A stretch of DNA of 63,920 bases, filler included, from Reclinomonas americana ATCC 50394 (GCA_048213135.1; 28 parts of 28 records of this genome joined end to end with filler, not necessarily neighbours in it); one strand, 5' to 3'. Numbered from the whole stretch's first letter, positions 1,727-60,758 are shown. Translations and numbers: made by a program. The notes: generated by a model not told the origin, from the sequence alone.

Positions 1727-3116
1727 ATGGAGTACGACAGCGGGCACGGCGACTATGAGCGCGACATGTCGCCACCACCCGTGTCGGGCGGTGCAGCCTC
1801 GTCGCGATCGCGCAGCATTCTGGGCCACCCCGACGACGATGCACGGCTGGACGGGTGGCTGCGCTCGCATCTTGAACCCATGTGCGTGCTCAGTCTGTCT
1901 GTGCTGGTTGGCGACATGTCTGACTTGCAACGCACTCGCAGCTCGGATGCAGAGCCGTCGACGCTGGCCAACCTCGTCAAGGCCCTGTTGAAGCCGGAGC
2001 GCATTGATGATGCAGATCACCGGCGTCGCCTCTCAAACGAGCTCAAGGACTTTGTGTCGGATCCGCATCGTTGCGTCACCCTCCCCGAGCGTAGTGTGTG
2101 TTGCCGGCACTGCATTCTCATGCGGTGGGCGGTGCAGATGCTGATCGGTTTGTGGATGAGCTGGCCGAGGCGATTCACTCGCGGCGTTTCTCGCGCACCG
2201 TCGGTGGTGCGTCTTCGTCGTCGTCGTCGTCATCATCATCGCGACGGCCGTACGTGAGCGAGCGCGACCGGTCGGCAGGGCGACGCGACACCTGGCGGCG
2301 ATCGGAGCGTGGCTCGAGCCGCGAGCGCGACAAGCGACGACGCAGTCCGTCTCCGCAGAACGGCTACGGGCGGGTGAGCGATGACCACGATGCCGGTGCG
2401 CCGTACAAGCGCGCACGCAGTTATCGCAGTCGGTCACGGTCGCCGCCGCCCACCTCGGCTACGCGGCGTGGAGGTGACCAACACGGCGCACCGCCACCAA
2501 GTTGCGTGGCAGAGTTGCTGTTTTTTTTTCCTCAGCATGTCGACAGGGGCTCACTCCACCTGTCCGCAGTCCACGTTGGCGAGTCCGACAAGGACGGCGG
2601 TGGTGACATTGTGCCGTACGATCCCGAGTCGCCGTCCATCGCCGCCGTGTCGCCATCGGCGGGTGAGGGTGGTGCTGCAGCAGGTCATTTGCAGCAGCAA
2701 CAGCAGCAACAGCAGCAGCAACAACAACAACAACACCATGGTGGCCCTCCGCACATGCACCAGCCGGGTGGCACACCGTTTTATGCTGGCCCCCCGGGTG
2801 CGTATCTCGGCGGGCGTCCGCCCGGCTTTGCCCCCATGTACATGCCACGAGGAGGGCTTGAGATGTACAGATATCCGCCTGGCGGCATGATTGGCGTGCA
2901 TCCAGCAGCCGCCTACAGAATGGGACGCAATGGCCCGGCCGATGCCGGTGGTCCCGAGGGCGGACCACCGATGATGAGTGCGCCCGGTGGCGGCATGCTC
3001 ATGGGAGCTCCGCACGGTCCGCCTATGATGTACGCAGGTGGTGGAGGTCGGGGACGCGGGCGCGATGGCATGTGGAATGGATCCATGAGAGGCTCACGGC
3101 GCTCGTCGCAAGGAAA
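1727..3116 (+). CDS. RBM26/RBM27-like RNA-binding protein (PWI domain), spliced, 3'-partial
   Basis: Spliced LDGWLRSHLEPI|SDAEPSTLANLVKALLK...LSNELKDFVSDPH|HADRFVDELAEAI resembles the RBM26/27 PWI domain (WLSKTLEPICDADPSALAKYV). Followed by an RS-rich tract, YDPESPSI (cf. YNPEAPSI) and Pro/Gly/RGG-rich sequence. Introns 1882-1941 and 2070-2137. Confidence 0.7.
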
Positions 3117-3216
3117 NNNNNNNNNNNNNNNNNNNNNNNNNNNNNNNNNNNNNNNNNNNNTTAATTAATTAANNNNNNNNNNNNNNNNNNNNNNNNNNNN
3201 NNNNNNNNNNNNNNNN
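3117..3216. other. Artificial contig linker (first of 27)
   Basis: 44 N + TTAATTAATTAA (stop codons in all six frames) + 44 N. Same linker starts at 5654, 7050, 8918, 12081, 15243, 16480, 17634, 18993, 20867, 23995, 27121, 30242, 33360, 36478, 39585, 40950, 42788, 45890, 48985, 50495, 51997, 55080, 56441, 57693, 60759, 62063. Confidence 0.99.
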
Positions 3217-3766
3217 CTGCGCTCGTGCAGCTCCTCGGCCCCCTGCGACCGTCAGCGCCACCTCCACGCGCCCGCACGACATGCGCGTCATCGGCTCCGG
3301 TGACCGCCGCGGCGTGCGCATCCCGGTCGAGGTCGACACGCAGTACGCGGCGATCGCACGGTTCGAGAGCGGAGCCACGGCGCAGCTAGAGTTCAGCTTC
3401 GACTCGCCGTTCTCCTACGAACCGCTGCTGGAAGTCACGGGAAGCGCCGGCGCGCTGCGGGTCTCCGATCCGAACGCGTTCGACGGCACCCTCCAGGTGT
3501 CGACGTTCGGCGAAGATCCACCGGTGGACGTGACGACGGATGCTGCGGGCAACGGCCGCGGTCTGGGTGTGGTCGACATGGCTCGGGCACTGCGAGCCGG
3601 CGTCGTGCAGCGGGCATCCGGCGAGCTGGCGTTCCACGTGCTCGACATCATGGTCTCGATCGAGGAGGCCGCGGCGAGCGGACAACCCGTCGAGGTCCTG
3701 AGCTCCGTCGAGTCACCGGCAACCCTGCCGACGGATTTCGATCCGCGAGCATCGACTCTGCGCTAA
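3217..3766 (+). CDS. Gfo/Idh/MocA-family oxidoreductase, C-terminal part (actinobacterial)
   Basis: IPVEVDT...FESGATAQLEFSFD...LEVTGSAGALRVSDPNAF...RGLGVVDMARALRAG...RASGELAFHVLDIM; 5' end cut by the linker. Confidence 0.85.
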
Positions 3767-5653: not shown

Positions 5654-5811
5654 NNNNNNNNNNNNNNNNNNNNNNNNNNNNNNNNNNNNNNNNNNNNTTA
5701 ATTAATTAANNNNNNNNNNNNNNNNNNNNNNNNNNNNNNNNNNNNNNNNNNNNATTCTTCCGGGCGGCGGGACGGCAACGGCGGCAACTCCTTGGTGGGG
5801 CGATGCGTTAG

Positions 5812-5827
5812 ATGACATCGCTTTCAT
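5812..5827. promoter_or_regulatory. LacI-family operator-like palindrome (distal)
   Basis: ATGACATCGCTTTCAT: imperfect palindrome with central CG, upstream of a sugar ABC operon. Confidence 0.45.
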
Positions 5828-5898
5828 GACCCTGTCAATCGAACGAAAGGCACTGGAAGTTGCATAAAAAAGGGAAATTATCGCCGATGTGAACGCGC

Positions 5899-5927
5899 CT
5901 TGACCGAGAAAATGTAACCGCTATCAT
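5899..5927 (+). promoter_or_regulatory. Sigma70-type promoter overlapped by a LacI-type operator
   Basis: CTTGAC (5899) ... TATCAT (5922); operator ATGTAACCGCTATCAT (5912-5927) resembles TGNAANCGNTTNCA; RBS GGGAGG before ATG 5984. Confidence 0.5.
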
Positions 5928-5983
5928 CGCTATCGAAGCTTGCCCGGAGAGGCGAGGCGCCAGATCATTTCAGGGAGGGCGGC

Positions 5984-7049: not shown

Positions 7050-7149
7050 NNNNNNNNNNNNNNNNNNNNNNNNNNNNNNNNNNNNNNNNNNNNTTAATTA
7101 ATTAANNNNNNNNNNNNNNNNNNNNNNNNNNNNNNNNNNNNNNNNNNNN

Positions 7150-8900: not shown

Positions 8901-9017
8901 GCGATGGAAGCTTACTCNNNNNNNNNNNNNNNNNNNNNNNNNNNNNNNNNNNNNNNNNNNNTTAATTAATTAANNNNNNNNNNNNNNNNNNNNNNNNNNN
9001 NNNNNNNNNNNNNNNNN

Positions 9018-12180: not shown

Positions 12181-15100
12181 AGGAATCGGGAGAGGGCATT
12201 GGCGGCGTGGAGCAGGATTCATTCACCACACCGACCTCCAAGGGCGGCAATCGCGGCAAGCCTGGGGTTCGTCTTGTTGTGCATAGTGGCGTTCTTCTGT
12301 TCCTTGCATTCATCACAATGATGCATCCGTACGCAGCCCACCAGCGCTGTCGCCAAGGCCGAGCAGCGCAGACAGACGCGTGAGATGTTCAAGGCCAAGT
12401 ACGAGGCCCTGGAGGCACGTCGACCAGGCGAAGAGTTGAGTCCTCTCTTTGTTTGTCAACCAGTTTGTATGGGCGGCAGGGAACTGACACGGTGGTGGCG
12501 CTGCGCAGCTACGAGGATCCACGCGACGCCACAGCCATTGCCTATGCAGAGCGCAACAAGGGCGATTTCAAGCTGAAGGAGGATCCGGCGTATGTGGTGC
12601 CCGAGCATCTGCGTGTGAACGCCGAGAAGAAGCTGCGACAGATGATTCTGCTGGAGGAGAGCATTTACACACTCAAGATGGTACGCTGTGCCTGCCACAT
12701 GTGTGTACGTGTGCATGTTGCTCATGCAGAAATTCGTGCAGGATTTCAATGAGCGCTTCCTGGCGTTGCGTGATCTGAAGGAGCGCATGATCCGACACAT
12801 CCAAGACGACATGAAGGAGATTCAGCGCATCAACGAAGAACTCGGTTTGCCGTCGGATGCTCCGCTGCTGGAGACCACCGAGTCACACGATGATGAGTAT
12901 CCCGAGCGCCGCACCGACTACACGCGCGACGACCTCGTGAAATTCGAGAAGCGCCGTGCTCGTGAACAGAAGGCTGCGGCCCGTGCTGCACGCTCGGGTG
13001 GTGGTCTCGGCCTTGGCGGTGGCGGCGGACACGAGAGTGACGAGGAGGACGACCACGAAGAGGAGCAGGATCAGGCCGGCAAGCCGGGCGCGGCGGCCGC
13101 GGGTGCCGCTGGCACTGCAGGCGCCGGTGCTCCGTCCGTCACTGGCACAGGGCCAGTGGCCTCGATGGCGGGTTCGGCGGCTCAGACGGGCGGCACGGGC
13201 CAGCCACCACCACTGCTCAAGACACTTGGCGATGCCGGATCGATGCTGGGCTCGTCTGCCAGTTTCACACTCAATCGCTGTGCGTAACCACCACCACTGT
13301 GCATGATTCGGCCATCTCGCGTGTGACTTACGCGTGTTCTCTTTGTGTTCTGCAGCGGGTACGCAGCGCAGCTTGCGATCCAACAAAAAGGCCACCACCA
13401 AGAAGGAGATCACGAGGCTGCATAACCTCGAAGCTCTTCGTCGAGAGCGACTGACGCGTGTGGAGACGTCGGAGCTGGAGAAGGTCGAGCGCACCGTGTA
13501 CGTCTCCACCTTGATCAACAAGAAGGAGCGCCTGATTAGCGTTGCGTCTTGTGTGCCTTTTTGCTTGTCACGCTGAGTGCAACTGCGCTCACTTCGGCTG
13601 TGTTTGAATAACAGAAAACCAAGCGCACCATCACCACGTTTGATACGGCGCTCGAGGAGCTGTACGTGGAGAAGCTGAAGTTGGAGGCTGGTACGTAAGC
13701 CACCAGTCGAACGAGATACACACACTCTCGCCCACGAGCACGCACTGACTTGAAGCTTTCTTTTTTGACAGATCTCAAGACGACCGACCTCAAGATCCTC
13801 CTTCTGTACCGCGAGCTGGTGCTGCTGAAGGACCTGGAGAAGAATGACCGCGAGTTGGCCATGTTGTTCGAGAAGCAACGACAGGAGAAGCTCAACCTGA
13901 GCCTCAAGGTGTGTGCTGCTGCCAAAACGATTACAATAGTTCCTCGGTTCTCAAGCCTCTCTCCAGATGGCCGACTGCGACGACCGCCTCATGGACAAGA
14001 AGCGTGAGCTGGAGGACATTTTGTCACGCGAAAAGTCCATCATCTCGGAGATGACTCGGTTGACGGAGAAGGATGCGGAGAGCGAAGGCAGCTTGTCGCT
14101 GTGGAAGATCTTCCGCAAGAAGGTGAAGCGCGTGAAGAAGACCGAGGGTGGCGACGTGGACGAAGAGGAGGACGACGACGACTTTGACTTTGACAACTTT
14201 GACGACTTTGAGGACGAGGACGAGGAGGAAGAGGAGCACTGCCCGGATGGTGTGTCGGAGGAGACGTACCAGCGTGTGCTGCAGCTGCGCGAGCAGAAGC
14301 TCGATGAGGAGGAGCGGCTGGCCGAGTTCTACACGTCGATGCAGGGTCTCAAGCGTGAGCACGACGACTATGTCAAGAGAGACACGGCGGTCGACGCGGC
14401 ACTGCAGGAGACCGAGGCCAAGATCCAAAAATTCCAGACTCAGAAGCAGAAGAAGCTCAACGAGCTTTTTATTACGGTGCGTGTGTGCTGCTTTGTTTTT
14501 GCGTCTTGCCGCTGCTGACACTACTGCTTCCCACATAACAGGTGCCACTGAAGATCGATCAAGTGCAAAATCTGATGGAGGGCAAGTTCCCATCCAAGGA
14601 CCTCAGCACATCGATTGTGTTTACGCGCAATGCCCTGCAGGCACTGCATCAGAGAATACGAGACCTGGTCAAGGTACACCACACACGCTTTGCAATGCTT
14701 CTCCATCATCGCTTCGCTCTCGTACTCACTTGCCTCTCTCTCTCTAACAGGAAAAAGTCGAGTTGATGCGTCTGCAGAAGCGGTTGGTTCGCGAGTACCG
14801 AGCCAACCTCAAGGTGCAGGAGGAGAAGCAGCGTGAAGTCGAAGCGTTGCGTCTCTTTTGTCATGTGTTTCTGTACTCCTGCTCCAATAGTCTGACTGAC
14901 CGCCACCACAGAATCGAAGCCAAGGTGGTAGAGGTACAGCTGATGCGCTTTGGCCAAACTGTGAATCTCGAGGACCTCGACAAGGCCGAGTTGGACAGTG
15001 CGTCGGAGGATCTGCGTGCAGAGATTTCCGAGCTCGAAAAGGCGCAGCAACGGCAGCTGCAAAAGTGGGAGGTGAGTTTTTGATAGACTGGTGTCGGTTG

Positions 15101-17733: not shown

Positions 17734-18992
17734 GATGGGCACGGCGAGCAGCCGCAGTGGGCTGCGGTGAAGGTGCTTCCCGTGTACACGCGTGGTGCGA
17801 AGATTGGGGTCTGTGGAGACTATGATTGCGTCTTGTTTTCGAGTTCATCAGCGCGCGCTCACACTCTCTCACACACAGATGCGTCCCGAGGACTTTGAGC
17901 GTGAGCGCAAAGCCCTGGATCTGGTGACCCGCAACCCACATGACAACCTGTGCCGCGTATACAAGGTGACAAACCTGCAAGCCAGGCGCGGTTTCAACGG
18001 TGCGCAGACCGAGTATCTTGGTACGTGGCAATCCGTGTGCGCGCGATGTCTAGCAAGTCTTGTCGGTCACTCCCTCTCCCTCTCCAGCCATGGAGTTTTA
18101 CAGTGGCGGTACTCTGGAGAACTTCGTCAAGCAGTATGTGATTGACGAGAGCCTGGCTGTTGCGTCGGTGTGGAGTCGTGACTGGTGACCAATGTTGTCT
18201 GAGATGAAGTTGTATTGTCGTTCGCAGGTGCACTTTACGTGGCAGTTGCTGCGAGGCCTCAATCACTTGCATACCATGCAGCCGGAGCCAATTGTGGTAA
18301 GTGTGTGCCCCTCGCTGCTTTCGTAATGATCGTGTGCGTGTTGTGCTGACCAGACGCACGCACAGCACCGCGACGTGAAAGTAAGCATGCGGAGCACCAG
18401 TGCTGCTGCCTGTCGTGTGGTCTCCTCATTTCCGTTTGTGTTTCGCAGTCGCAAAATGTGCTGCTGCATTATCAGCGTACCTCTGAGAAGCAGACTCGAC
18501 ATGTGGTGCTGAAACTGGTTGATTTTGGTTGCGTATTTCTTTTCTTCCTCTGTTTGTGTCCGCATCTCGTCTCACAACCGTTGGTGTTCAGGCACAAGCA
18601 AGCAAGTGGCCACGGGAGATGAACGACAAACGTACCGCGGCACCCCAGCGTGGATGGCTCCTGGTCTGCTTCTCCCTCTGCTCACTTTGCTTGATTTGCC
18701 TGTTCTCATGCTCCTTCATTTCTCGCTGTACACAGAGGTCACGTGTTAATCGATTGGTGTGAGCTCCTTGTTTTTCCCCGCTTTGTGATGCTGATGGCCA
18801 CCCACAGGTGCAAAACACTCGAGGAGCCACGGTCAAGAGCGACATTTGGTCGCTCGGATTCTTGGTGTTGGAGGTATGAGCGCCTGCTGTCCATCGCTGG
18901 CTTTCACATTGGTGACATGACACTCTCTATCTTCCGCGGCTGCAGATGCTGCTCGGTGGCAGTCAGCAGATTGCCTTGGTGCACGGCACCCC
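17734..18992 (+). CDS. Ser/Thr protein kinase domain, multi-exon, partial (eukaryote)
   Basis: Spliced: FERERKAL...PHDNLCR...MEFYSGGTL...HFTWQLLRGLNHLH...IV|HRDVK|SQNVLL...KLVDF|GTSK...GTPAWMAP|EV...ATVKSDIWSLGFLVLE|ML. Confidence 0.92.
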
Positions 18993-19092: not shown

Positions 19093-20866
19093 TATTCGCG
19101 ACTGTTGACATTCTTGCAGCCCTCACCTTCGAGAGGACGTGCTTGCCGCCAAAGTAGACGATCTGTCGCAGGCTCGAACGCTTGTGGAGCCTTTTCAAGC
19201 TTGGCGCACGATGTTCTCGCGAGGTCTGTACTTGCGGCGGAGGGATATCATCGCGCAGCTGGTGGCGTTTTGCAACCCACATGTCGACGGTGGCATGTCG
19301 GTTGACGGGGATGAGCCGATGTCGAGTCAGACAGCGTCTGGCAACAGACTGTGTATCGTGCATGGCGACACGGGTACGGGCAAGACGTTTTTGTTCACCG
19401 ACATTGCCGACAAGTTTCGACTTGCTCACTTTGACCAGACGGACTCGGGTATGGAGGTTCGTGAGCGTCCGTGCACACCCATAGAAGTGTAACCGGCACT
19501 TTCGCTGACCGGACACAGAATATTGCTGATCTCGGCATGCCAATGGAGCGCATCGCTGGGTTTTACTTTGTGCGCCCCGACATCCCGGCGACGCGGCAAG
19601 CTGATCAGTTCGTTCGAACGGTGTCGTCGATGCTGCTCCGTTCGGTTCCGGGGTTTCGCGAGAGCCTCTACAACGTACTGCGAGCAGACGATGATGCCGG
19701 TAGTGTCCAGTTGACTGCAGACTGGGGCTCCCTCGTGCTCGATCCGCTTTCTCGCCTGCCGTGTGACCAGGATAGACCAGTTGAGTAAGTGCTTACTTTT
19801 ACCCGTCGTTGCCTGTGGCTAGTCGCTCACGTATTCCACTCGTCGCAGTCAAACAAGTTGTTCTTCATTGACGGACTGGAGCACGTTGCTGAGTCAGATG
19901 TCGATTTTCGGGCCACACTTCGCTCCATGTTCGTGTTATGTGTGTGTTTGCGTTACGCTTTGCTCGGCTCCCTCGTTGTCCTAACCGAGTTGGTCAGGAT
20001 CGTGGACTTCCCGCCGTGGCTCCACGTTGTGTGCTCGGGGGTCGGCGACAGTGAAGCAGCTGTCGGCAACGTGCAGTACCTGTTGAGGGCATCTGCCCAT
20101 GCACGCGTCGACCCCGTGCAGCTTGAGAGTAAGATGGACACGGTGTGTTTTGATGAACCAGAAGCTTATCGCCGCGTCGCACTCGAGTACGTGCACATGC
20201 GCGCCGAGAGTGAAGAAAGAGTGCGTCACGCGGTGCGGAGATGGGCTCCAGAGGAGGACGCTGGCGGCCAAGATGCTGCTTACATGCGGCTGTGCCACAC
20301 CGCCAACTACAACTTGGCGTATCTGTCGCAATTGCTTGATGTTGTCAGCAAGGGCGGATTGCAGAGTGGCAGTCTTCCCGAGGTGAGTGTTTACACTCTC
20401 CATGTCACCAGGGCGCCACCCATCATAATCTTCGTCTGTGCTTCGTCGCACAGGGACTCCCGGCGTTGTACCAGCAACTCTTCGAAAAGCTCTTTGCTTC
20501 TGACGGGCCTTCGTGGTCGGAGGCGTTGAGCGGGTGTGACGGAATCGACGAGGCTACCAGGGATCAAGTTGCCAACATACTCGATCATTGCAGAGGAGCG
20601 TCAGTTCGGTCGCTCGTTGAAGACTACACTGAGAAGCGGCAGCGGGAGATCCTTAATGGTGCCCTCAGACCATCTGGTTTGGCGCGGCTGGTTGATGCGA
20701 TTGTGCAGAAACTGAAGGCTGTTGAGTCGTCGGCATTTGCAACTGCGACGCCAGCTACTCCATGGTCGCCGACTGCGCTTACCTTTGGCGGCCCCACGTT
20801 CAACGAAGTCAAACCAATTTTGCAAGTGCTTCTCTGTTGCGTCTCGTTTTGAAATCGCGCGCAGCC
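19093..20866 (+). CDS. STAND/NACHT-like P-loop NTPase (TANC/NPHP3-like), multi-exon, partial
   Basis: RRDIIAQL; Walker A IVHGDTGTGKT; IAGFYFVRPD...FVRTVSSMLLRSVPGF; VLDPL; Walker B FFIDGLE; FPPWLHVVCS; NLAYL; LP|GLPALYQQLF. Confidence 0.7.
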
Positions 20867-24094: not shown

Positions 24095-25374
24095 GCTTGA
24101 CACTCGGTTGTCTGCTTGACAGGCGTTCGTCGATATGCCGACGGTGGCCAGTACGAGGGCCAGTGGCTGAGTTGCGTGTGGATGCCTTGCCTCTTGGAGT
24201 TTTGCGCATGCTCAGCTTGAACTTTCTCCACAGACGATCAGAAGCATGGCGAGGGTGTGCGCACGTATGCTAATGGGGTTCGTTACTCGCTCCACTTGGC
24301 GCTGGCTGTGTGTCTCTCCTTTCATTTCCCTCCTGCTGTGCCTCATCTCCGCCCCCGTCGAGTGTGTGCCTCTCTCTTGTGCCTCAATTTTTGTCTGTCT
24401 CTCATGTGACTCTCATGTGTTCGTGCGGTGCTGTTTCGCTTTCTCTGTATGTCTCACTCTGTCTCTCTCTCTCTCTGTTGTATGTGTGTGTGTCTGTCGC
24501 CACATGCCCCTCTCCTCTCTCCTGTTAATTGTCTCTCTCCATGCGTATAGAACCTCTTGCTTCACAATCTCTATGTGTTGCTCTCTCTCCCTCCTTTGTT
24601 TTTTGCCTGACCCTACCCCTCTCCCCTCTCATTCTCTCTGTGTATGTGTGTGCAGGCGCGCTACGAAGGCGTATTCGTCCTCGACAAGAAATGCGGCCAG
24701 GGTTGCTACCGATGGCCCTCCGGCACCATGTACACCGGCAACTGGCTGTTGCGTGCGACTCGCCCGTCTCTTTCTCTTTCGCCTCCTCAGCAATCTCACT
24801 TCTCTTTTAGCGACGACAAACGAAGCGGATACGGCGTGCTGGAGCGCGCCGATGGGTCGGCATACGAAGGTTGCGTAGCGACGGCGTCTGCACTCCCTCT
24901 GTGTGCACTTTGATGTTGAAAAGTCTTTCCGAATGCAGGTCAGTGGGAAGCCGGAGTGCGTCACGGCCAGGGCTACGAGGTGGACGCCGGCTCGTCCATC
25001 AAACGAGCGGTGCGGTACCACTACGGCGAGCTGGTTGAGGAGGATGGCCGGCCAGTGCCCCCGCAGCAGGGCGGGTATCATCATCAGAACGAGGAAATGA
25101 TGCACGGAGGTGACCAAGTGTGCCATTCCTTCCCCTTCTTTCTTCCCTCCCCTCATGCTGCAATCCCGCAGACTACGGTGCCGGGATCTACGGCCCCGAG
25201 ACTGCCACCTCCCCGCGCCACCACGGTTTCGAGCAGCACCCACAGTCGCACCCAGAATCCGCCTCCACACGACCCGACGGCATGCCCTCCGAACCCGGAT
25301 CTCCGCTCCGCGCACGCCCCACTCACCCGCAAGTGCGACCCGTTGGCGGTGGCGGTGACAGCGAAGATAGTTGA
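24095..25374 (+). CDS. MORN-repeat protein, 3' part, multi-exon
   Basis: YADGGQYEGQWL|NDQKHGEG; YEGVFVLDKKCGQG; PSGTMYTGNWL|DDKRSGYG; DGSAYEG|QWEAGVRHGQG. Confidence 0.88.
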
Positions 25375-25660: not shown

Positions 25661-27120
25661 ATGTCCGCCTCTGCATCTGCCGCTGATAACGGCAGCAGCA
25701 GCAGCAGCAGCAGCACGCCCGCAGTCACTGAGGGTGAGTGAGTGAGTGAGTTGAGATAGTGGCGGACAAGCCTCATGCATTTTCCGATAATCAATCTCAC
25801 GCAACAACAAACACAGCTGCTGCCGCTGCTCCTCTTCCCCCAGTGTCAAAAGACAATGTGACTCGCATGCAACTGTTCTTGACTGAACGCGCCTCTGCGC
25901 TTCTCTTTGATTCGTTTGTGGAGAGGGCACGCGCTTTTGTGCCCGTGTTGGAGGAGTCGATTGCTGACACGCAAACAAGCTGGAAAGTGGATGACGAGTT
26001 GCGTTGGATGTCTTGTCGCCCTCTGGTGTGACGCATGCGGAAGACTCACTGTTGACCGTCTCAGGCTTCTCAAGTTTGGTTCTGTTGGCCGTGTTGCGTT
26101 CTATGCGTGGCGAAAAGTCGTCAAGTCGGAAGGCGACCACACTGGTGCTCTCACCATGGACGAGTGGGCGGAGGTGGTGGAGAGAGCGGAGCTCGCGGTG
26201 CATGTGCAAGGTCAACAGCGTCAACAGCGAGAGCAGCCGCAGCAGCAGCAGTCACAGCAGCGGAAGAAGCTTGGCATTGTCCAGCTGACAGACAAGGTGC
26301 ACTTGCAGTGCGAGTACTTGAAGAAGCTGGCGGAAACGTCGCCCGCTGGTGATGCACGCCGGCGGCGCATGGACCTCAAGCATCTTTGTAACGTGCTTTG
26401 TGGCATGGCTGTGTGCGAGGGAGGACCGCATCAGCGCAAAGGAAAAGTGAATTTGGCCGAGTGTCGCTTTCGCGCTTTGCTTCGGAATCCTGCGTTGCTG
26501 GACGTGAAGGTTTGTCGCTCTCACAGCCACTCATCGCCCCTTTGTTACATAATGTATTCTAACCCCGCATGGACGTGCAGAAATGCGACATTCTAATGCA
26601 TCCAGGAGCAATCAGTACAGCTGCTGCCAGCGCCGCCGACTCGAGCGACCAGCGACAGCGGCTGGAGCAACTCAAGCTTATCATACAACATCAACAGGCC
26701 TGCAAGCAACTGGTGGATGCGCAGAATGCCATCGTTAGTCACGAGGATCGGGTGACGCGGCATCTGAGTGTCGAGCTGCTTGTTGAGTCGCTCTCAGAGC
26801 TCGGTGTCCAGACTGACGCCGCTCAGCGCGCATGGCGGGAGATCGAGCACGGTGAGTGCTGATGTTCGCCTGCTTCGATGAGCCCCATCACCCGTCGCTT
26901 AGGTTGTCGTCGTGACAGTTGATGTCGCACAACTCTGCGCGTCACCGGCTTTCCTCAAGCACGAATCAAGAGTCATCTGCCGTGCTCTCTGCACCGCGTG
27001 CGACGTCGCGGATCACCATCGACGCTGTGAAGGGTTGCTGGGACAGGTTGCCGCCGTGCGCGACCTGTCGATGCAGGAAGAAGAGGACGACCAGCCGCCC
27101 GCTGTCAGCATACTATGCTC
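25661..27120 (+). CDS. Hypothetical multi-exon eukaryotic protein, 3'-partial
   Basis: ATG at 25661, GTGAGT donors, coding-like segments in successive frames; no family recognised. Confidence 0.55.
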
Positions 27121-33459: not shown

Positions 33460-36400
33460 TGCGGCAGTGTGGAAATCAGTCTGTTTCAACCCGCGGGTTG
33501 ACTGACGGCTAATGAGGGTGACCGCCACCGGTGTGTTGCCCACCAGCGTGCTCTCTGTGCAACATGTCGGTGATCCATGTCAGTAATCGTGTAGACATCT
33601 GCCGGCAAATCTTCGCAGACAAACTCACCTCCCGAAACCATCACGTAGCCACTGGAATTGTCACGCGGCACCAGCCGCGATCCCACCAGCATGGAACGCA
33701 GCTCCAACGCCTGCACGCGACTATCGCCGCGCACCGTCATCAACACCTGCGAGGTGGCAGCGGCCGCCTCACCGACAGCCACCTCAAAGTTGTCGCTGCG
33801 TGCCGTGCCACTCGGGTCGAGTCGAATGGACCTCACGCCCGTCAGCGCCAGCGCAATCGACGGAATCTCATCAAACCCGAAAGCATGGGCATTCACCATT
33901 TCCTGCTCACACAGCCGCGTGGTTCCAACGAATGAGTCCAGGGACCATGCACAGGCCTGCTCGCATCAACAAACCGTAGTGAAATTCTTGTCGGTGGCCA
34001 GGCTCAGCCACTCATTGGCGGCTTTTTGACGCGGCAATTCGTTGTCGTGGGTGTACGTCGCGGCAGGGTCCGCGTACATGGCGATGAAATCTGCCACGCA
34101 GGTCGTGAGTTTCATGCAAGTGTGCACGAAAACGAAGTCGATCTCACGAAACTAGTGACGAGCGAGTCGAACTGCGCAGTGCCGAGTGCCGAGCACTGCA
34201 CCGTCAGCATAAAATTGGTGACCGACGGCCTCGCGCAGCGAATGTCAGTGTCGCCCTCAATCGTATTGGAGAGAGCGGAGATGCCAAAGAGCACAGTGGG
34301 AATCGCCGGGAACGATTGCACAAAGCGGTGCGTGATCTCCACGGAGCGAGTGCCAGTGCCAGTGCTCATCTGTCGCACAACCAGGAAGCAAACGTCAGCA
34401 TGCAAGCCGTGGACAGCATGCGATCGAAAATGACATGCTATCCGACCCGTTCCTCCGTCACTTCTCTCTGTTTCACACATAAACTCTCTGACTCACTCAC
34501 TCGTAGTTGTTGCTCTCATCAACAGCACCTCAACATTTCCTTTCTGCCTCCCACCTCCTCTCCTCGCACGCACAGTTGACCTTCAAAGTCGACCTCCTCT
34601 ATGTCACTCATCTGTTGAATTCCCAAGCACACACTCCCAAAAGTCTCAGCCATTCCCCTCCTCAAGTCTTCCACTCCTGTCACCCACAACCCGTCCCCTC
34701 ATGCGGTCCATTCACATCGCACAGGGGAACAACTAATCTTTTCCTCTCCCCAGTCGGTCTCTCACTCTCGTAGGACAAGAACAATCTCCACTGATGCACT
34801 TCTCCTTTCTCACTCTCTCCTTCTTACCGTCGTCACACAATACCACAAATATTGACAAATTGTCCTTCCTCTCTTCTCTTTTCAACCTCTCTCTCGCATA
34901 CAGAATCAACCTCCATTGACAGCGCTCGCTTTGTAACCCTCTCAATGGCATCCAATTCACACACTACCACAACGTATGCTATCTCTTTCCCCCTCTGACT
35001 TGCCACACACGCAGCTCCACGACACACTTCTTTTTCTCTCCAATGCATTCTCATCCACACTGTCACAAAGTATCAATTCCCTTCCCACCTCTGATGATCC
35101 TCTCTTACCACACGCACTGCATCCACGCCACACTTCTCACTGTTACTATCTCTACAATGCATTCTCATCCACACTACCATAAGAAGGAATCATTTCCCTT
35201 CCCACGTCTGATGATCCTCCCTTGCCACACACACAAGCAGCCTCCGCAGACATTCTCCTCTTTGTTTCTCTCTCCAATGCATTCCCATGTGTACACCAAC
35301 TACCGCAACCAATCCGTTCCATCCCTCCTCTGTCGATTCTCTCTGTCACACGCATATACTTCCACAGACATTCTTCTCCTCTCCCTTTCATCCATCCACA
35401 CGGTATCTACCAGACAACTCCTTTCCCTCCCCCCTCTGCATTTCTTCGCATGCCAAACGCAATCTCCTCGACCTCACTTTTCTTTGGTTCTCTCTTCCTT
35501 GCATCCATCCACGCACTTTCAACCACAACCAATCCCTTCCATCCCCCGTCCGACGATTCTCTCTTGCCATCCAATCTCCACTGACACACTTCTCTCTGTT
35601 TCTCTCTCCTTCACATTCCTATCCACACTCTCACTGCCACAACCAATCCGTCTCCTTTCCCTCCTTCTCCTTTCCATTCTTGGCATTCTCTCAATCGTTT
35701 GCAACCACATCTACACAATACCACAACCTACTCATCCCCTGACGGTCCTCTCTTGCGCCACAAACACTCCACGGACACACTTCTCTTTGTTACACTCCCC
35801 AACGCGTTCCCATCCACACACTTCCAAAGCCAATCTGTTCCTTTTCTCCCTTCTGCCTTTCCTCTTCAGTAATGCACACAAACTCAACAGACATTCTTCA
35901 GTCTGTTTCTCTCTCCATTGCTTTCTCATCAACACACTTCTACCCACTGTCTCTTCCACGCAAAATGCTTTCACAACCCCCCTTCTCCTTGCCTCACCTC
36001 CCTCCCTCCCCCTTCCCACCTAACCTCTCTTCTCCTCGTCTCACATCCTTCCACATCGCCCATTATCTCCCCCTTCTCCTTGTCTCAACTCCCTCCTCCC
36101 ATTCCCTCTTTTAACCCCTTCCCTCTTTACCTCCCTTCCCTCTTTACCTCCTTCCCTCTTTACCCCCTTTCCTCTTCACCCCCTTCCCTCTTTACACCCT
36201 TCCCTCTCTACCCTCCTTCCCTCTTTCCCCCCTTCCCTCATCACCCCCATTCCCTCTTCACCAATCTTCCCTCTTCACCCGCCTTCCCTCTTCACCTCCC
36301 TTCCCTCTTTCCCCCTTCCCTCCTTACCCCATTCCCTCTTTTCCCCCTTCCCTCTTTACCCCTTCCCTCTTTCCCCCTTCCCTCTTCACCACGCAACGAT

Positions 36401-36577: not shown

Positions 36578-39500
36578 TTGTCACCGTTGACCAGTACTTA
36601 TACTGTCTGTTGCAGACAATGTTCCCGTCGTTTGTGATGGAACGGCTCGGAATGTGTTGCTTGCGAACATGACAATCTCCGACGATGCCGTGTCGGGTCC
36701 CGACAGATACGCGTTGGTTGTCGATGACGCTCCTGGAAAGCGATTGACTGGATGGGCTGTGTACGGCATTGCTGGTCAGTGACGGATTAGCCTCAATCCG
36801 AGAGTCCCGTTTCCCTCATTTTATACCTCGTCGACCAGCGCCTTCCATTTCGGTCACCACCCCAGTAGAAGGTACCATTTTGTCGACAAATTCCACTGTC
36901 CCGGTGACATTTACATGCAATCGAGTGGCGATGACCACTGCAACCGTGATACTGCTTGGTTGCGTCTTTGAGGTCTCCGTGTGCATCGCATTTTCTCTGT
37001 TGGTCTCAATCTTCTTGCTGTTTTCTATTCGCAGAGCACTTTTATGTCGTCGACACCTTTGGTGCAATTTTCAACGCGACCAGTGATGTCGATTTCGCAC
37101 AACTTGTTCCGGGTCGCACCACGCGCTCTCTCGACGTGGAAGATGCACGCATTCTGCTTCGTTTCGAGATTCCCGCACGGTGCGGTGCTGGACAGACTGC
37201 CAACATACTACAGTGGATTCCGGATTCGGCCTCGTGAGTGGTTGCGATTGTTGTCATGCAAACTCAATTTAAGTCCTTACATTGTTACGACGTATCCAGG
37301 AATTCTTCGTCGACTGTGGCGGCATCGAGTTCATCCTCATCGCGCGCGGCCACTGACGATGTCACGCAGATAGCGTCCTTGTGGGACGGTCCACGCTTGT
37401 TGCGCGCCTGGGTTTTGGATTTGGCCAACACAGAGTCGCCTCTTGTCGGTGGCAGTGGCCGCTTCCGCCTTGTGCGCACGGTGATGACCAGCAGCGGTGT
37501 GCAGGTCGGCGTCGGCGCCGACTCGGACGTGCAGATCACTGTCGATGGGACTGTGATTGTGGCGACGTCGCCAGAAGAGTTGGTTGGGTCATCGTCTACA
37601 TCCGTAGTTGCCGGTGGCACCTGTGGTGGCTTGTTCTGCTGGATGTGGGTCCTTATCGCGATCACTGTGTCGATTCTCGTCGCGTTGAACGTATTTTGGT
37701 GTGTGTTTTGCTGGCGCCGTCATCAACGTCGCAAGGAAGCGGAGGATCGAGCCAATGCGAACCGTGCGTTTCTTACCCGTGCGCATTCTGTCGTGCGCTC
37801 TGTTTTCCCACTCACATTACTTTTTGCTTTCTTCAGTGGCACAAGAAGTCGCCATCGACTGTGTCACAGAGGTGGAAGTGGCTGACTTTGATGACGACTG
37901 TGGTGTGGGCATTGGTGCGTTGGATCTTACTCCCCAAAAGAGCTCGCTCGCGTGGGTCGATGCGAGACGACGACCCTCTACGCCATTCGCGGAAGCTGAA
38001 CAGTGGTGGTCGCCCACCGTCGCACCGCCGTTCGGAGCTGGTACGGCTTCCTCAATTTCATCTCCGCAAAAGTTGTGTTCTCATATTATGATGCGGGTGT
38101 TGTCTCAGTACCGGAGGTCAGCTTTGTGGATGTGGACGAACTTGAAGCTCCGCTGCGCGATACCGATGAATACGACGGCATGCAACTACCACCTCTGCAG
38201 CAGCTGACACAAACACCGACGCCAGTGCCGCCACCGCCTCTTGCCTTGTCACCGGCGACAATTCGTGCTCGTCTCGGTGCCATTGCTGCGGTGCTGGCCG
38301 CCGCAGAGACGCGACGAGAGGAGCAGCGAGTTCGTGGAAACACACCGACGCAAGCTCCTCCGCGAAGCTGTTGCGTGGACTTCAGTGTTTGTTGTTGTCT
38401 CTTCCCCTCTCGCTCGTGCCTCGCCTCAACCCCACGCACAGTGTCTCGCCTCGCTGCCGATTCAGTCAATGCGCCTCCCCCGTCTCCGACACCGTCGATG
38501 ATCAGCGGTGCGTGGTACCACTGCTGCCTTTTCTCCTCCCGTGTGCCGCAGGTGCTCATGTGTTGCGCAGTCAATCGCCCAGTGGCAAGACCGCGTTCTC
38601 AGCTGTCGATCCCGCCACCACGTGGGCACGAGGACGAGTTCTTGCTTCCACTGCGACAGTTGCTGCAGCGTGTGCGCAACCGCACCGCTCTTCACGGTCA
38701 ACAAGGTTCTCAGAGCCCGTCGCCGGCATCGTCACCCGCCCCGACACACCCTGAATTGCAACGGACTTTGCACCCGGTGGTCGCGGGCGACGACAATCTG
38801 GACGGAGTGGAACAAGTGCGATCGGCGTGGCCACAAGTGATTGACCGCCGTGCGGTGTCCGCTGCTGCTTCTAGAATGCCCTTCCCGTCCTTGCGGGGTT
38901 CGCCGTCACCCACACCCTCGCCCGCGCGCACACCAGTCACGACAGGAGTCTCGCCGTCTTCCGCGACCAGTGCAACGGTGGCTTCCGGTGACATGCGGGC
39001 CACTGATGTGCCATTCCAGCTGGTGAAGACGGCGTGGCCTCAAGTGATTGATCCGCAAATCGCCGCTCAAGTTGCTGCATCTCGAGCTTCTGCACCGCCA
39101 CCGCGATCCATGTCGAGTCTGGCGGCCGCGCTCGCAATGCCGCCGCCGCTGGAATCATTCGGACGGCGACCTGCTACGGCGAGTGAAGAGCTGCGCCATC
39201 CGGTCGGCATGAGTTCCGCCGGTTCGTCGACAGCATGGGGCGAGGATTCCGGAAACGGAACGTCCGCCGCCGCCGCCGCTGCCGATCCACTTGCCAGCAC
39301 AAGACCAGTGCCATTCGCACAACCGCTGCGACAGCCGCAGCGCCGCACGCGGTCTCCGCGCGCACCACGATAACCGCAAGTGAACGATAATGTTGTCTTT
39401 TTGCATTTCTCTCGAACAACAACACCTCCGCGACAGAAAAAATAAGAAAACGCAACACCGACCTAATGTAAAACAAAGAAACAGCCTGCTCATGGGGCAG

Positions 39501-42887: not shown

Positions 42888-43760
42888 GGACGCTGGACGA
42901 CATTGAGAAGAATGTCAAGCTCAATCACCAACAGCAGCTCGGACTGCGCTACTACTATGTTGCGTGCACTCACTCTTCGTCGCCCTCCGCCTCCGCCACA
43001 CAGTGTTGGTGAACGTGCACGTACCGGCCACAGGATATTCAGCAGCGCATTCCGCGAGTGGAGGTGGCGGCCATTGAGGCCGTGGTGCGTGAGGCGGCGC
43101 ACAGGGTGCACCCGGAACTCTTGGTGAGCGATGCAATGGTCCTCTTACCACTCCCTCCTCGGCTCACCCGTTTCTGGACTCATGGCAGGCGGTGTGCTGT
43201 GGCTCGTTCCGTCGCGGCAAGGACTCCAGTGGCGACGTGGACATTCTCGTCTCGTTCGACCCCAAGAACGACGACTTTGCGCATGAGCCAGTGGTTGGCA
43301 TTCTCAGTCGCATCCTGGGCGAGCTGCGTCGCATGGAGTTCTTGGTGGGCGACCTCACGGAGCACATTGACGAGAGCGGCGTCTCGGAGACCTACATGGG
43401 CCTGTGTCGGCATCCGGACTACGAAGTCGTGCGCCGACTCGACATCAAGGTGTACCCGCCGTCGGCCTTCCCCTTTGCGCTGCTCTACTTCACCGGCTCC
43501 GGCCACTTCAATCGCTCCATGCGCCTCTACGCCGACCACTCGGGCTTCCGCCTCAACGACAAGGCGCTGCTGCGCGTCGTCCGCGACGCCTCCAACGAAG
43601 TCATTGTCAGCTCCGAATCGGTGCCATGCCGCAGCGAGGAAGATATTTTCCGGTGCGTTCTTCTCTCTGCTCTCTCCTGTCACTGCATGACAAACTGAAC
43701 ACGCGCGCATGCAGGGCCATGAACGCGACATACCGGACGCCGGCGGAAAGGGACATTTGA
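42888..43760 (+). CDS. Family X DNA polymerase (lambda/beta-like), C-terminal exons
   Basis: GLRYYY|DIQQRIPR; CGSFRRGKDSSGDVDIL; YMGLC; RRLDIK; ALLYFTGSGHFNRSMR; SEEDIF; YRTPAERDI*. Confidence 0.93.
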
Positions 43761-43931: not shown

Positions 43932-45523
43932 ATGGCCTCTGGAAGCGCCGACGCATCACACGGTGCACTTGCTCCTGTGTCTCCTCTGCCCGCACGCAAG
44001 GTGGTCACTGGCAACGTCTTCTCCTGCTTCGAGGATGCTGTCGGAAACACGCCACTCATTCGTCTCCGGTGCGCCTCCATGCATGCATGCATTCTCTCTC
44101 TCACACACACACAGTGTGTCTGACTCTCTCTGTGCGTGTGTGACCACCAGTCGCGCATCGGAGCTCACTGGGTGTGAGATCTATGGAAAGTGCGAGTTCA
44201 TGAACCCAGGCGGTGAGGGCGTGCGCGTGTGTGAGAGTGGAAATGCCCTCCTCCTTCTCACACACACACGCGCGCGCACACAGGCAGCGTCAAGGACCGC
44301 GCAGCACTGTGGATCATCAAAGACGCAGAGGAGTTTCGTCACACAAAGTCTCTCTTTCTGCTTGCAATCACACTTATGCGCACACACAGACGCGGTTTGT
44401 TGTCACCCGGGCAATGCATTGTCGAGGGCACTGCGGGCAACACGGGCATTGGACTGGCGCTGGTGGCCAACTCGCGCGGCTACAAGACGGTGATTGTGAT
44501 TCCCGACACGCAGTCGCAGGAGAAGAAGGACATGCTGCGCATGGCGGGGGCGCAATTGGTCGAGGTACCGGCGGTGCCGTACAAGGACTACAATAACTAC
44601 ATTCGAGTGTCGGGCCGCTTGGCGCAGGAGCTGGGCGGAGTGTGGGCCAATCAGTTTGATAATCGGGTGAGGCGGAGCGATGGGGGAGAAGGAGAAGGAG
44701 AGAGAGACAGCTGACTTGGTGCGATGCAGGCCAACCGACAAGCGCACATTGAGAGCACCGGTCCGGAGATGTGGGCGCAGCTCGAGGGCAAGATCGACGG
44801 TTTCAGCTGCGCCATTGGCACTGGTGGAACATTGGTGCGTCGTGCCGTGCCGTGCACTCCAGCGAGAAGCCAGGGCTGCTCATGTTTCTCATGACTCCCA
44901 CTCTTTCTCCACTCCCATTCTCCCTCTCTGTTCTGCATTTTTCCGACACGCAGTCGGGCACGGCCGAGTTCCTGCGGTCGAAGAATCCGGCAATCAAGAT
45001 CGGCCTCACGGATCCGCAGGGCGCGGCGCTCTACCGCTACTACCGCGATGGAGAATTGCGCTCCGAGGGCTCCTCCATCACCGAGGGCATTGGACAGGGG
45101 CGCGTCACCGCCAATCTCGAAGGCTTCAAGCCCGACATGACATACGAGGTGCGACGCGTGCATGCTGCTCTTTCCTCGCTTCTCCACATTCTCACGCTGT
45201 GCGCGTAGATTCCGGACGCTGAGGCCCTGGACGTCATCTATGATTTGCTGCAGCACGAGGGCTTGTGCCTCGGCACCTCGTCGGGCATCAATGTGGCGGG
45301 CGCCATTCGCTTTGCGCGCGACATCGGACCCGGCCACACCATTGTCACCATTCTGTGCGACTCGGGCACGCGCTACCAGAGCCGCCTGTTCAACGTGCCC
45401 TTCCTGGCCTCCAAGGATCTGCCACGGCCGACGTGGCTCGAGAGCATCGAGGTCAGCGACGAAGTCAAGGCCGCCGTGCAGCGTGCCATGGCTCCCCCTC
45501 CGGCGGCAGCGCCGCCATCGTGA
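43932..45523 (+). CDS. cysK: Cysteine synthase (O-acetylserine sulfhydrylase), multi-exon, apparently complete
   Basis: VGNTPLIRL|...KCEFMNPG|GSVKDRAA; IVEGTAGNTGIGLA; QSQEK; WANQFDN; STGPE; IGTGGT; SITEGIGQGRVTAN; GTSSGINVAGA; TILCDSGTRY. Confidence 0.93.
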
Positions 45524-50806: not shown

Positions 50807-50818
50807 CAGCGCTCCGGC

Positions 50819-51691: not shown

Positions 51692-51719
51692 GTGAACTCT
51701 CGGATGGATGAGAAGGGGA

Positions 51720-57692: not shown

Positions 57693-57792
57693 NNNNNNNN
57701 NNNNNNNNNNNNNNNNNNNNNNNNNNNNNNNNNNNNTTAATTAATTAANNNNNNNNNNNNNNNNNNNNNNNNNNNNNNNNNNNNNNNNNNNN

Positions 57793-60758
57793 ATGCACGC
57801 CACCCGCAATGCTGAATGTCGGCGTCTGTCCCGTGTTGAGATCCACCATACTCAGGGTGCCCACCGTGAACGGCACCGTCGCACTCGAGTACGTCTGCGG
57901 TCCCGACAGCAGAATGTCGCTCGGACCAACGCTCCCTGCACACCTCATTCGTTTAGCTGACACAAGCATACACACTCATTCACACACATGCTTGCATACA
58001 CACATACATACACACAGATGGAGAGAGAGAGAGAGGGAAGAGAGAAAGAATAACAACATGAAAGCAAAAGAAGCAAAGCTCTGATCTCCACACATAAGCA
58101 AACAAGGAAACAACGGCCGAATGCTCCCTGCGCTCTCCCTTACCCCCATTCCTCACCAATGGCGAACGCAGACACCGCCAGATATGTCTTGGCTGGCGCC
58201 CATCGCGTGCACAGTTCGTACGTGCCCACAGCTGCACCCGCCGCCCCAATCGTCAGCGTGATGCTGGTCGCGCTGCCGAATGTGCTGCTGACGCTGGTGC
58301 TGGCCACGGCTGTCGGCGGTGTCGTGGCAGCACAAAGCGGAGTGCCCAACACATATGCCGACGTGTCGGCCGAGGTGTTCACCAGCGCGGTTCCTGTCAG
58401 CGTCACCACTTGGCCAGCCAGTGCCGACACAAAGGTGGCCGACAGAGACGTCACAGTGGGCGCTGCATGCGAGGTAATCAGCATCATCATGCAAGAACAT
58501 CAGGCACAGTCAGAATGGCACGCAACCAGCAATGTTGAGGGTCTGGTCAAACGACATGGCGGGGTTGCCATTGTCGGTCGTCCGCACAATCACCACCAGC
58601 GATGCCGTCACTCCCGCATTCACAAACTGCAGTTGGTTACCAGACGCAATCGTCACCAACGCGCTGCTCGCACCACCAACCACCGAGTACGTGAACGACT
58701 GCTGCGAGTCCACGTCATTCGTGCTCATCGTGCCGATCGCCAGTCCTGCCGTGCTGGGTGGAAAGTACGAGCTCGCACTCAGTGTCACCGCCGTCGGTGC
58801 ATTGTTCACTGTAGGAAGACAAGGTCAGCATCCACGCAGAGAAACACACAACAGTCTCAATCATCCACTCACCCGACGTCACACTGAACGACTTGTCGAC
58901 AAACATCGGTGGAGTGCCATTGTCAAACGAGCGGATCGAGACGGCTAGCGGACTTCCCGACTGTCCCGCCGACGTGATCTGCAACTGCACGCCTCCTCCG
59001 CCCAGGGAGAAGACGCCGCTGTTCGCGCCTCCGATGATGATGTACGTGTACAACTGGCTCCCATCGCCGTCTGTGGTGCTCATCGTACACACGGGCATGT
59101 TGGCCGTCGACGGTGCGACATAGGTGGCAGAGCAGACAATGTCGGTCGGCGTCGAGTTGGAGGTGGTGAATGACATGGTTGACCCGATGAGAGTGCTTGG
59201 CACAGTGGACGAGGAGATGGCACGGAAGTAGTACGTCCAGTTGGCGGCGAGCGATGTGAGCGACAAGGTGAGAGAGGTGCTGGAGGCGACACCGGAGGTG
59301 GCCGGGGTGGCCGAGATGGCAGTGGTGGAGCCGATGGTCAGTCGGCGAATAATAGAATTAGTAAATTCTACGTGCAACAGGGTTAACAGTCAGCATACGA
59401 AAACTGCACTGTCTGCCGGCAACTTCTTACCTCCGATGTATAAGGTGGAAGACGCAGCGTGGTACGCCATGAAATGCTGCGCTCAACAGGACGCGCATGC
59501 CAAACAGTCAAGATCTCAAGCTTCGGGCCAGTACAAGATAGAAAAAGACAAGAGAATGGTCATACCGGCTTACTCAACCGAGCAGTCGTGAGTGGGTTCC
59601 CATCAGCCGACCCACCAGACCCAGCAGTGCCGGCCATGGTAGTCACGACACCCGTGCTGATAACGATCCGCCGGATCGTGTGGTTGTTCATCTGCAGACA
59701 CCACGTGCACGTCGGTAAGCAGACGACAAGTTGCAAAGCATACAATTCAGCACGCAACATCGGCAACGTAAAGAACCCCTCGTGCTCGATCAACCTGGAT
59801 GCCAATTGGTTGGCTGAACAGAGCCGCGGTGCCCGTGGCGTCTGTCGACCCGGCAGCTCCGGTCAGCGAGCCGGCCAGGGTCGACACAGTCATCGCCAGC
59901 ATGTCGATCACACGAAAGACGTGACGAACTCGATCCGCTGTTCACCAACGAATGATCATGAGTACACCTCCTTGCATGGAACGTACATCTACAAACATAC
60001 ATACATACACGTACCGACATACAGCCGGTTGGCAGTCGAATCCAATGCAACACCAGATGGACCACCAAACCGTGCTGTTGTTGCACATGCTCCATCAACG
60101 GTACCCGACGATCCAATCGTGCCGCAGTACGTCGTGACCTCGCCGCCGTATGTGACCTGAAGAGTGACACGTAAGTACTTGATGAGGAAGCACTGTAGTC
60201 AAAGAACGCAAACACCTTTCTTACAGCCGAGTTCGACACGTCTCCAACATACATCACTTTGTTGACCGAGTCAACTACAATGCCATGTGGAGAATAAAAT
60301 CTCGCACTCGACCCGGTGCCATTTGCAGAGCCGGAAGACCCATTGCCAGCCAGAGTCGACACAAAGCCAGAAGGCGTGCTCATACGGATTGTCTGGCTAC
60401 CGTTCTGAAGCGCCTGATAATGAGACCACGAAGCGAGTAGTAGAACGGACTGCTTGGTGGACGACTCAACACTCAACATCAGTATTGTACAGATATCCGG
60501 TGGTCAGGTCGAACGACAAATCGAAGGGCCAGTTGAATCGCGCGGCATTGCCGATTCCATCGACCAGGCCTGCCGCTCCGGCAGTTCCCAGAAACGTCGA
60601 CACCACACCTCCACTTGTCACTCGCCGAATCGTGTGATTGTAGATATCACATACGAATGCAATACCCGAAGCGTCAAACGCAATGCTCTGTCACGTCGAC
60701 GCAAGCGTGTGAGACAGGCTTACGTGGTAATAAGCGCACTCTCATCAGACGAACCGTT
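57793..60758 (-). CDS. Large surface protein with NHL repeats and cadherin-like domains, multi-exon, partial (eukaryote)
   Basis: NHL: VSTLAGNGSSGSANGTGSSARFYSPHGI; YVAD|MNNHTIRRI; VTTMAGTAGSGGSADG. Cadherin-like: NSTPTDI...TMSTTDGDGSQLYTY...IRSFDNGTP; NNAPTAVTLS...GTMSTNDVDSQQSFTYS...VRTTDNGNP; GPSDILLS...GTLSMVD. Confidence 0.8.

Follow-up and report, generated by a model that had tools for sequence, protein, structure and literature searches.

The distance from the cut site of an intron to the +5G and +6U that the U1 and U6 small nuclear RNAs (snRNAs) read is treated as fixed, and the 5' end of U1 itself is near-invariant across eukaryotes (standard sequence ACUUACCUG). Human 5' splice sites total roughly 200,000, and offset registers have so far been rare exceptions, shown site by site in human cells. 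According to the excerpted text of one source (PMC4856993), the bulge +2/+3 and +3 registers (Roca et al. 2012, via Tan et al. 2016) were proven in human cells, with 68 predicted sites for the former (54 after curation) and 51 (36) for the latter, and so was the "shifted register" (Roca and Krainer 2009, cited there), in which every U1 pair slides along by one position. In this study, we have explored a 63,920-base stretch of DNA (the window) from the assembly of the protist Reclinomonas americana ATCC 50394. An earlier note made from the letters of this DNA (the sequence-only reading) had claimed that many of its introns begin with GTTGCGT, GTTGAGT or GTTTCGT, so that the GT normally found at +5/+6 falls at +6/+7, and that this is a major donor class in unrelated genes. 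Our analysis of the genomic sequence confirmed the claim: GUUGCGU, with the rarer GUUGAGU and GUUUCGU, appears to be a genuine major class of U2-type 5' splice sites, used by about one intron in five.

As far as the excerpted source describes the human sites, the bulge +2/+3 or +3 sites resemble those of the protist in being built of GU, an extra U and a RAGU-like tail, with G/U at +6/+7 and the cut placed at the first GU. They are a few dozen per register, whereas the protist class would account for some one in five introns and includes the commonest donor. The dominant protist tail is GCGU, which pairs poorly with U1, whereas the human tails are AAGU or GAGU; and the human registers are backed by suppressor-U1 tests, whereas the protist class is read from DNA sequence. 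In the human shifted register, +1G lies opposite C9 of U1 and there is no need for a G at -1, and the protist class shows a matching depletion of -1G; the human class is very small, with a tested example that is GUCAAGUAU-like, whereas the protist class is large and always has U at +3. U12-type introns are a further likeness, since they also form a second, more rigid donor class beside the main one. Their consensus is an (A/G)TATCCTT donor with a TCCTTAAC-like branch; unlike them, the protist class has neither, and its lengths and branch-like motifs are those of ordinary introns. Among jakobids, the genome of Andalucia godoyi has few introns, of which 134 were checked and all were GT...AG, with no donor motif given in the excerpted text (PMC7050145). 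Searching the jakobid literature (Andalucia, Seculamonas, Reclinomonas; supplements lay outside the search), we found no description of a nuclear donor motif, and searches on the shifted register in protists and on the heptamer strings returned no such donor class. A shifted or bulged register is thus known as such; its use as a major, rigid class that supplies the commonest donor appears to be new.

Three lines of counting support the class in the window, whose eukaryotic part comprises 15 pieces, about 42 kb in total (GC content 0.53-0.60, weak codon bias, many short introns). The first is the occurrence of the motif itself. The stated heptamer was present at all 20 coordinates listed by the sequence-only reading: its firm sites carried it in 13/13 cases on the plus strand and 3/3 on the minus strand, and three of its probable ones (2501, 20836 and 38370) read GTTGCGT on the plus strand. 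For the fourth, 36397, the heptamer GTTGCGT stands on the minus strand, and the plus strand reads CGATTGT. Over both strands there are 24 GTTGCGT where an order-2 Markov model expects 9.2, and 12 GTTGAGT where it expects 5.7. Of these 36 sites, 34 fall within the eukaryotic pieces; they divide into 30 on the sense strand, 2 on the antisense strand and 2 that could be assigned to neither (binomial P = 2.5e-7).

The second line is a gene model that is blind to the donor. It was self-trained on the eukaryotic pieces, scores coding potential, intron composition, acceptor, branch-like motif and intron length, and gives every GT the same donor score. We counted its 82 introns of 45-140 nucleotides (nt) on the better-scoring strand of each piece, a count without 2070 and 2501, both also picks of this model but on the strand of the first piece (piece 0) that scored lower. 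Ten of the 82 began with GTTG[AC]GT (hypergeometric P = 6.8e-10) and two with GTTTCGT, where the frequencies among all 3040 sense GT sites would predict 0.73 and 0.05. The share of sites that the model used was 37% for sense GTTG[AC]GT, 7% for GTNNGT and 1% for any other GT. The model is noisy, as 30 of the 82 called donors match no motif. The class makes up 12/82 of its calls, or 12/52 of the donors with any recognisable motif, and the model wrongly set 12435, 18159, 24171, 43124 and 44213. Both this model and its motif-informed counterpart mis-set several ordinary junctions.

The third line is a catalogue of 83 introns, obtained from a motif-informed run of the model with manual correction from homology. 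Its donors are GTTG[AC]GT in 17 introns and GTTTCGT in 2; another 61 have G at +5 (GTNNGT in 41), and 3 belong to none of these groups. The shifted class therefore amounts to 19 of the 83 introns (23%), in at least 11 unrelated genes, and among the ten junctions of the CFAP44 fragment that were all compared with homologues its share is 3/10. The commonest single donor is GTTGCGT (15), followed by GTGCGT (8) and GTGAGT (7). One heptamer pattern dominates the donors that lack G at +5: 17 of these 22 are GTTG[AC]GT, whereas among all GT sites without +5G the pattern makes up 1.3%. In 15 of the 19 class members, the 30 nt to either side contain no GT that is both in phase and has G at +5. Two of the class donors, 25998 (plus strand, GTTGCGT) and 34152 (minus strand, GTTTCGT), were not on the list of the sequence-only reading.

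Eleven of the 19 class junctions are supported by evidence that does not depend on the motif. Colinearity with homologues covers 12435, 13541, 14846, 42959 and 44333, repeat spacing covers 24171, 24748 and 24870, kinase motif or frame logic covers 18528 and 19780, and for 18159 the evidence is the helix spacing usual in kinases. The plus-strand CFAP44 gene has three class introns, at 12435..12508 (74 nt, donor GTTGAGT), 13541..13614 (74 nt, GTTGCGT, also picked by the donor-blind model) and 14846..14911 (66 nt, GTTGCGT). We aligned the spliced fragment to 20 long homologues of the 150 listed and inspected six residues on either side of each junction. The alignment was ungapped in 20/20 at 12435, in 17/20 at 13541 (the other three break off within the inspected span) and in 20/20 at 14846. 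At the 12435 junction, tblastn of P0007 aligns residues 207-241 before and 243-298 after, and at the 14846 junction a genomic open reading frame (ORF) of a close relative (P0275), intron-free there, reads QREVEA-IEAKV, the very junction that was predicted; P0276 stems from a 95%-identical relative. Of the other seven CFAP44 junctions, six were ungapped in 16-20 of 20 homologues; the seventh, 13280, lies in a low-complexity stretch and was ungapped in 3/20 only.

In the MORN-repeat gene (plus strand), three GTTGCGT introns are fixed by the periodicity of the protein, as each is the only choice that preserves the 14-residue core spacing (Pfam MORN). Splicing at 24171..24233 (63 nt) gives YEGQWLNDQKHGEG, with the same 14-residue spacing as the fully exonic repeat YEGVFVLDKKCGQG, and read-through meets a stop. 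At 24748..24810 (63 nt, donor-blind pick), the product YTGNWLDDKRSGYG keeps the repeat spacing intact, where read-through would insert 21 residues into a MORN repeat. Splicing at 24870..24938 (69 nt, donor-blind pick) gives YEGQWEAGVRHGQG, and read-through again meets a stop. A search with the MORN ORF returned no match.

Two enzyme genes on the plus strand give residue-exact junctions. In the family X DNA polymerase, the intron at 42959..43033 (75 nt, GTTGCGT) interrupts YYY|DIQ, and the three exons correspond without indel to human Pol beta 121-144, 145-174 and 175 onward: residues 1-22 of exon A match 121-143, the 30-residue exon B spans 145-174, and residue 2 of exon C is 176. Pfam placed fingers 24-47, palm 1-25 and palm 28-112 on the three exons in turn; a PDB search with the 30-residue exon B gave no match. 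In the cysteine synthase gene, the intron at 44333..44389 (57 nt, GTTTCGT, donor-blind pick) equals 19 extra codons, since residues 40-54 of PDB entry 5jis_A align to ORF positions 18-32 and residues 54-157 to 51-148; the spliced product reads ...KDAEERGLL....

Frame and motif decide two further plus-strand cases. In a protein kinase, the intron at 18528..18591 (64 nt, GTTGCGT, donor-blind pick) starts within the G codon of the DFG motif, and only that GT with the AG at 18591 gives VDFG-TSKQ...GTPAWMAP in frame. In a STAND ATPase gene, with a Pfam NPHP3_N match on the exon upstream, the intron at 19780..19848 (69 nt, GTTGAGT, donor-blind pick) is the only one that joins the ORFs 19465-19785 and 19789-20526. 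The sequence-only reading had pointed out that an adjacent perfect GTAAGT would break the frame here, and this holds: the GTAAGT at 19785 overlaps the class donor, and none of the AGs nearby would bring it into frame. The kinase has a second class intron at 18159..18227 (69 nt, GTTGCGT), picked by the motif-informed model, where read-through meets a stop. The donor-blind model took an in-phase GTGTGG 9 nt downstream instead, and helix spacing is our ground for preferring 18159; Pfam searches with the individual kinase exons gave no usable match.

The remaining class junctions come from the donor-blind model, apart from 2501, which was placed on signals. On the plus strand, an RS-rich, RBM26-like gene has a GTTGCGT intron at 2070..2137 (68 nt, donor-blind pick), whose length is not a multiple of 3 and whose removal links two open frames; an in-phase GTGTGT lies 24 nt downstream, so that this choice of donor is not unique. 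A probable second one in the same gene, at 2501..2569 (69 nt, GTTGCGT, donor-blind pick), is in frame and stop-free, with its signals (T-run, CTCAC, CAG) as support. Further donor-blind picks with GTTGCGT on this strand are 25998..26064 (67 nt) in the C-terminal part of the MORN-repeat gene, where the pick is the sole evidence, and 36959..37034 (76 nt, not a multiple of 3). On the minus strand, the donor-blind picks are 32011..32092 (82 nt, GTTGCGT at 32092, not a multiple of 3) in a Q/H-rich Zn-cluster protein, 34091..34152 (62 nt, GTTTCGT at 34152), and, both in one gene for an NHL-like repeat protein, 58463..58526 (64 nt, GTTGCGT at 58526, not a multiple of 3; before a TIG domain) and 59692..59758 (67 nt, GTTGCGT at 59758). 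For the last, the motif-informed translation joins LYVAD-MN-NHTIRRI, spaced as the exonic FVCD-IY-NHTIRRV of the same protein. Five more sense GTTG[AC]GT sites are candidate donors with no reliable gene model: 1168 (plus), 59578 (minus), 20836 (plus; the contig ends 30 nt beyond the GTTGCGT), 38370 (plus; competing gene models) and 36397 (minus; the only supporting intron is a 373-nt call of the donor-blind model). At 59578 (GTTGAGTAAGCC), a GTATGA that lies 13 nt downstream is a rival donor.

Taken together, the class introns are rigid at the donor and ordinary elsewhere. All 19 start with GT and end with AG, and all have U at +2/+3, no G at +5 and G/U at +6/+7. The heptamer is nearly invariant, with U at +3 in 19/19, G at +4 in 17/19, C at +5 in 17/19 and G and U at +6 and +7 in 19/19. 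This rigid class coexists with a degenerate normal GTNNGT class: in 60 ordinary donors, +3 is G in 29, A in 16 and T in 13, and +4 is A in 19, C in 19 and T in 20. The exon ends in G at -1 before 4/19 shifted donors vs 38/61 ordinary ones (Fisher P = 0.003). Class introns measure 57-82 nt, ordinary introns being mostly 52-122 nt. In 14/19 class introns a branch-like CTNAY lies 8-50 nt upstream of the AG; the corresponding shares are 67% for ordinary introns and 20% for random windows of 41 nt. Downstream of the heptamer the composition resembles that of ordinary introns, whose interiors contain the heptamer's complement about as often as those of the class (10/58 vs 4/19, no enrichment).

The best reading of these data, and one to which we give about an even chance, is offset pairing, shifted or bulged, by standard snRNAs. 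In the class itself, the first G marks the cut site, like in other GT-AG introns, and the conserved G(C/A)GU that ordinary donors have at +3 to +6 is pushed one position deeper by an additional U. The snRNA nucleotides that read +5G/+6U of ordinary donors would here read +6G/+7U, with C4/A3 of U1 as the first readers of the displaced GU and the ACAGAGA box of U6 as the later one. One possible route would be a shift of the entire U1 helix by one, with +1G opposite C9; another would be the looping out of the U at +3. The catalytic core would still set the cut at the upstream GU. The composition of the heptamer is consistent with this: it can be written as GT + T + G(C/A)GT, and GTGCGT and GTGAGT lead the ordinary donors in number. 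The depletion of -1G is predicted by the shifted helix, because +1G takes the place opposite U1 C9. In RNAduplex predictions, the GUUGAGU donors at 12435 and 19780 pair in the shifted register at -4.1 and -7.4 kcal/mol. The U6 snRNA gene of the window (813..923, minus strand; Rfam RF00026, 86.3 bits, full length 1-105) has the canonical GAUACAGAGAAGAUUAGC and is canonical through ACAGAGA and AGC. It was the only Rfam match in the window at the gathering score and E <= 1, and no U1 gene was found in that scan.

Several observations weigh against this reading, or against the size of the class on which it is built. The 23% share is partly circular, as the model behind the catalogue rewards the motif, and the whole sample is some 42 kb of one fragmentary eukaryotic assembly. 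The class is also more rigid than ordinary donors (+4 G and +5 C, 17/19 each, vs ordinary +3 G in 29/60 and +4 C in 19/60), and it favours C over the better-pairing A by 15:2, vs 8:7 in ordinary donors (P = 0.049). Because the class is rigid and C is favoured over A at +5, simple bulge tolerance would be insufficient. With a human-type U1 5' end, the mean predicted duplex energy is -2.3 kcal/mol for the class vs -5.8 for ordinary donors, and with a kinetoplastid-type end -4.7 vs -7.2 kcal/mol; bare GUUGCGU is predicted to have no useful pairing in any register, and for most GUUGCGU sites no register yields a meaningful helix with either type of end. The sequence-only reading had proposed routine bulged pairing as one of three causes, next to a variant U1 5' end and altered U1C/Luc7/Snu66-type factors. 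Such pairing fits GUUGAGU; for the dominant GUUGCGU, the pairing predicted with the U1 5' ends known so far is very weak.

These last points lead to the main competitor, which we regard as possible though clearly less probable than offset pairing: the lineage may have re-coded its pairing between U1 and the 5' splice site. If its U1, or a second U1, had a 5' end of the ACGCAAC type, GUUGCGU would pair with it perfectly and would be the cognate donor and true consensus, and ordinary GUNNGU donors would pair with a bulge. On this account, the near-invariant heptamer, its rank as the commonest single donor (15/83), the preference for C at +5 and the poor pairing of GUUGCGU with known U1 5' ends would all be expected, and -1G would be dispensable, as where a donor already pairs strongly. 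Against it stand the almost universal conservation of the U1 5' end elsewhere and the ordinary donors of the protist, which favour G/A at +3 and G at -1 as a standard U1 predicts. In its favour, U1 5' ends do vary within Discoba, the kinetoplastid consensus being AACUCACCUGCA according to the excerpted text of PMC11613528. A Discoba-type end reads ACUCACCUG. The probability left after offset pairing and an altered U1 falls to protein-assisted recognition or to error.

It could also be argued that there is no class at all, with chance GTTGCGT strings lying beside real donors or with weak ordinary donors drawn from a degenerate GTNNNN consensus. In its favour, 13 of the 30 sense GTTG[AC]GT sites are not catalogued as donors, at least one of them (12765) being plainly exonic, and four class sites have an in-phase GTNNG within 30 nt. 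We consider it very improbable in the face of the donor-blind enrichment, the concentration of one heptamer among donors without +5G, the 30:2 ratio of sense to antisense sites and the junctions of CFAP44, Pol X and cysteine synthase, which are colinear to the residue. Less credible still is a mobile intron family (introners) that would bring its own GTTGCGT end. The identical 5' heptamer in unrelated genes and the intron positions that differ between the protist and a close relative are in its favour, but the sequences diverge directly after +7 and the mean local score between intron bodies is 7.99 (maximum 13) within the class vs 7.96 (maximum 17) for ordinary introns; because class bodies share no extra similarity, we do not take them for an introner family. 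Equally negligible is the idea of an assembly artefact or of U12-type introns, for although the heptamer equals GTGCGT plus one T in a T run (a homopolymer error) and its rigidity is reminiscent of U12-type sites, 60 GTGCGT strings stand unaltered in the window, long ORFs and colinear exons are free of indel noise, an error limited to donor sites is implausible, the donors are unlike (A/G)TATCCTT and the branch-like motifs are CTGAC/CTCAC as in ordinary introns.

A protist in which some fifth of the introns, and the commonest donor, are of the offset kind would offer a natural setting in which to study how the cleavage register is set, how much U1 pairing is needed and whether the U1 5' end can co-evolve with its targets. 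A re-coded U1, if true, would be a natural genome-wide counterpart of the suppressor-U1 experiments and a rare departure from the near-invariant U1 5' end. In practice, gene finders trained on +5G would mis-call the class introns, and a donor model with two registers is needed for such genomes, including draft jakobid genomes.

The ordinary donors have a peculiarity of their own. A purine at +3 is preferred in most eukaryotes; in this protist +3 and +4 are almost unconstrained, and T at +3 is frequent in ordinary donors too (GTTTGT in 6 and GTTCGT in 4, plus 24278), as at 624 and, further on, 31573 and 33974 (all minus strand) and at 12267 and 19457. The intron with the donor GTTCGT at 24278-24655 (plus strand) is 378 nt long and rich in CT/GT microsatellites. 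The donor at 624 (GTTTGT) belongs to the single, ordinary intron of an RRP4 exosome-subunit gene (2-801, minus strand), and the U6 gene lies directly upstream of it on the same strand. The main exon of this RRP4 (207 residues) shares 63% identity with the RRP4 of Seculamonas ecuadoriensis, a jakobid; the next full-coverage matches reach at most 52%, and a few partial ones (<80% of the query) 53-64%. This one protein gives a lead to a probable jakobid relative as the eukaryote, short of a placement. Metagenome contigs scanned with the CFAP44 alignment held relatives at 34-38% only.

The window itself joins 28 short contigs (1.05-3.1 kb) through linkers of the form N44-TTAATTAATTAA-N44 (e.g. 3117-3216 and 12081-12180). 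Beside the eukaryotic pieces, 13 look bacterial, with GC of 0.61-0.69 and third-position GC of up to 0.9 (by these two measures, examples are 3217-8917, 15343-17633, 49085-51996, 56541-57692 and 60859-63920). Because these 13 pieces differ in GC and third-position GC, the assembly is that of a protist mixed with at least one bacterium. An ORF of 957 residues with NACHT and WD40 domains (27369-30239, plus strand) is intron-free despite the intron-dense genome, and WD40 arrays of its type also occur at 20969-21346 and 23541-23993. In a scan of prokaryote genome contigs, this ORF matched only WD40 relatives from bacteria, cyanobacteria among them, and the nearest loci showed 34-46% identity.

Some of the genes described above have further features. 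The 3' part of the kinase gene (18664-18830, plus strand) has no clean model, as the spacing from APE to DIWSLG needs a 2-nt exon between two introns (AG at 18736-18737); the alternative is an assembly error or a pseudogene. The cysteine synthase gene (44151-45520, plus strand) has at least five spliceosomal introns, and its closest structures are 5jis and 5i7w, both titled "Cysteine synthase" (E about 1e-40, high identity in the aligned part). If these are bacterial, as we take them to be, the gene could be an old transfer that later gained introns. Finally, the 14846 intron of CFAP44 is missing in P0275 of the close relative, which carries a 17-residue in-frame insert about 20 codons downstream (~14970), and another ORF of that relative, P0001, starts with an intron-like read-through where the protist has a single exon. 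These differences in intron position point to recent intron gain or loss.

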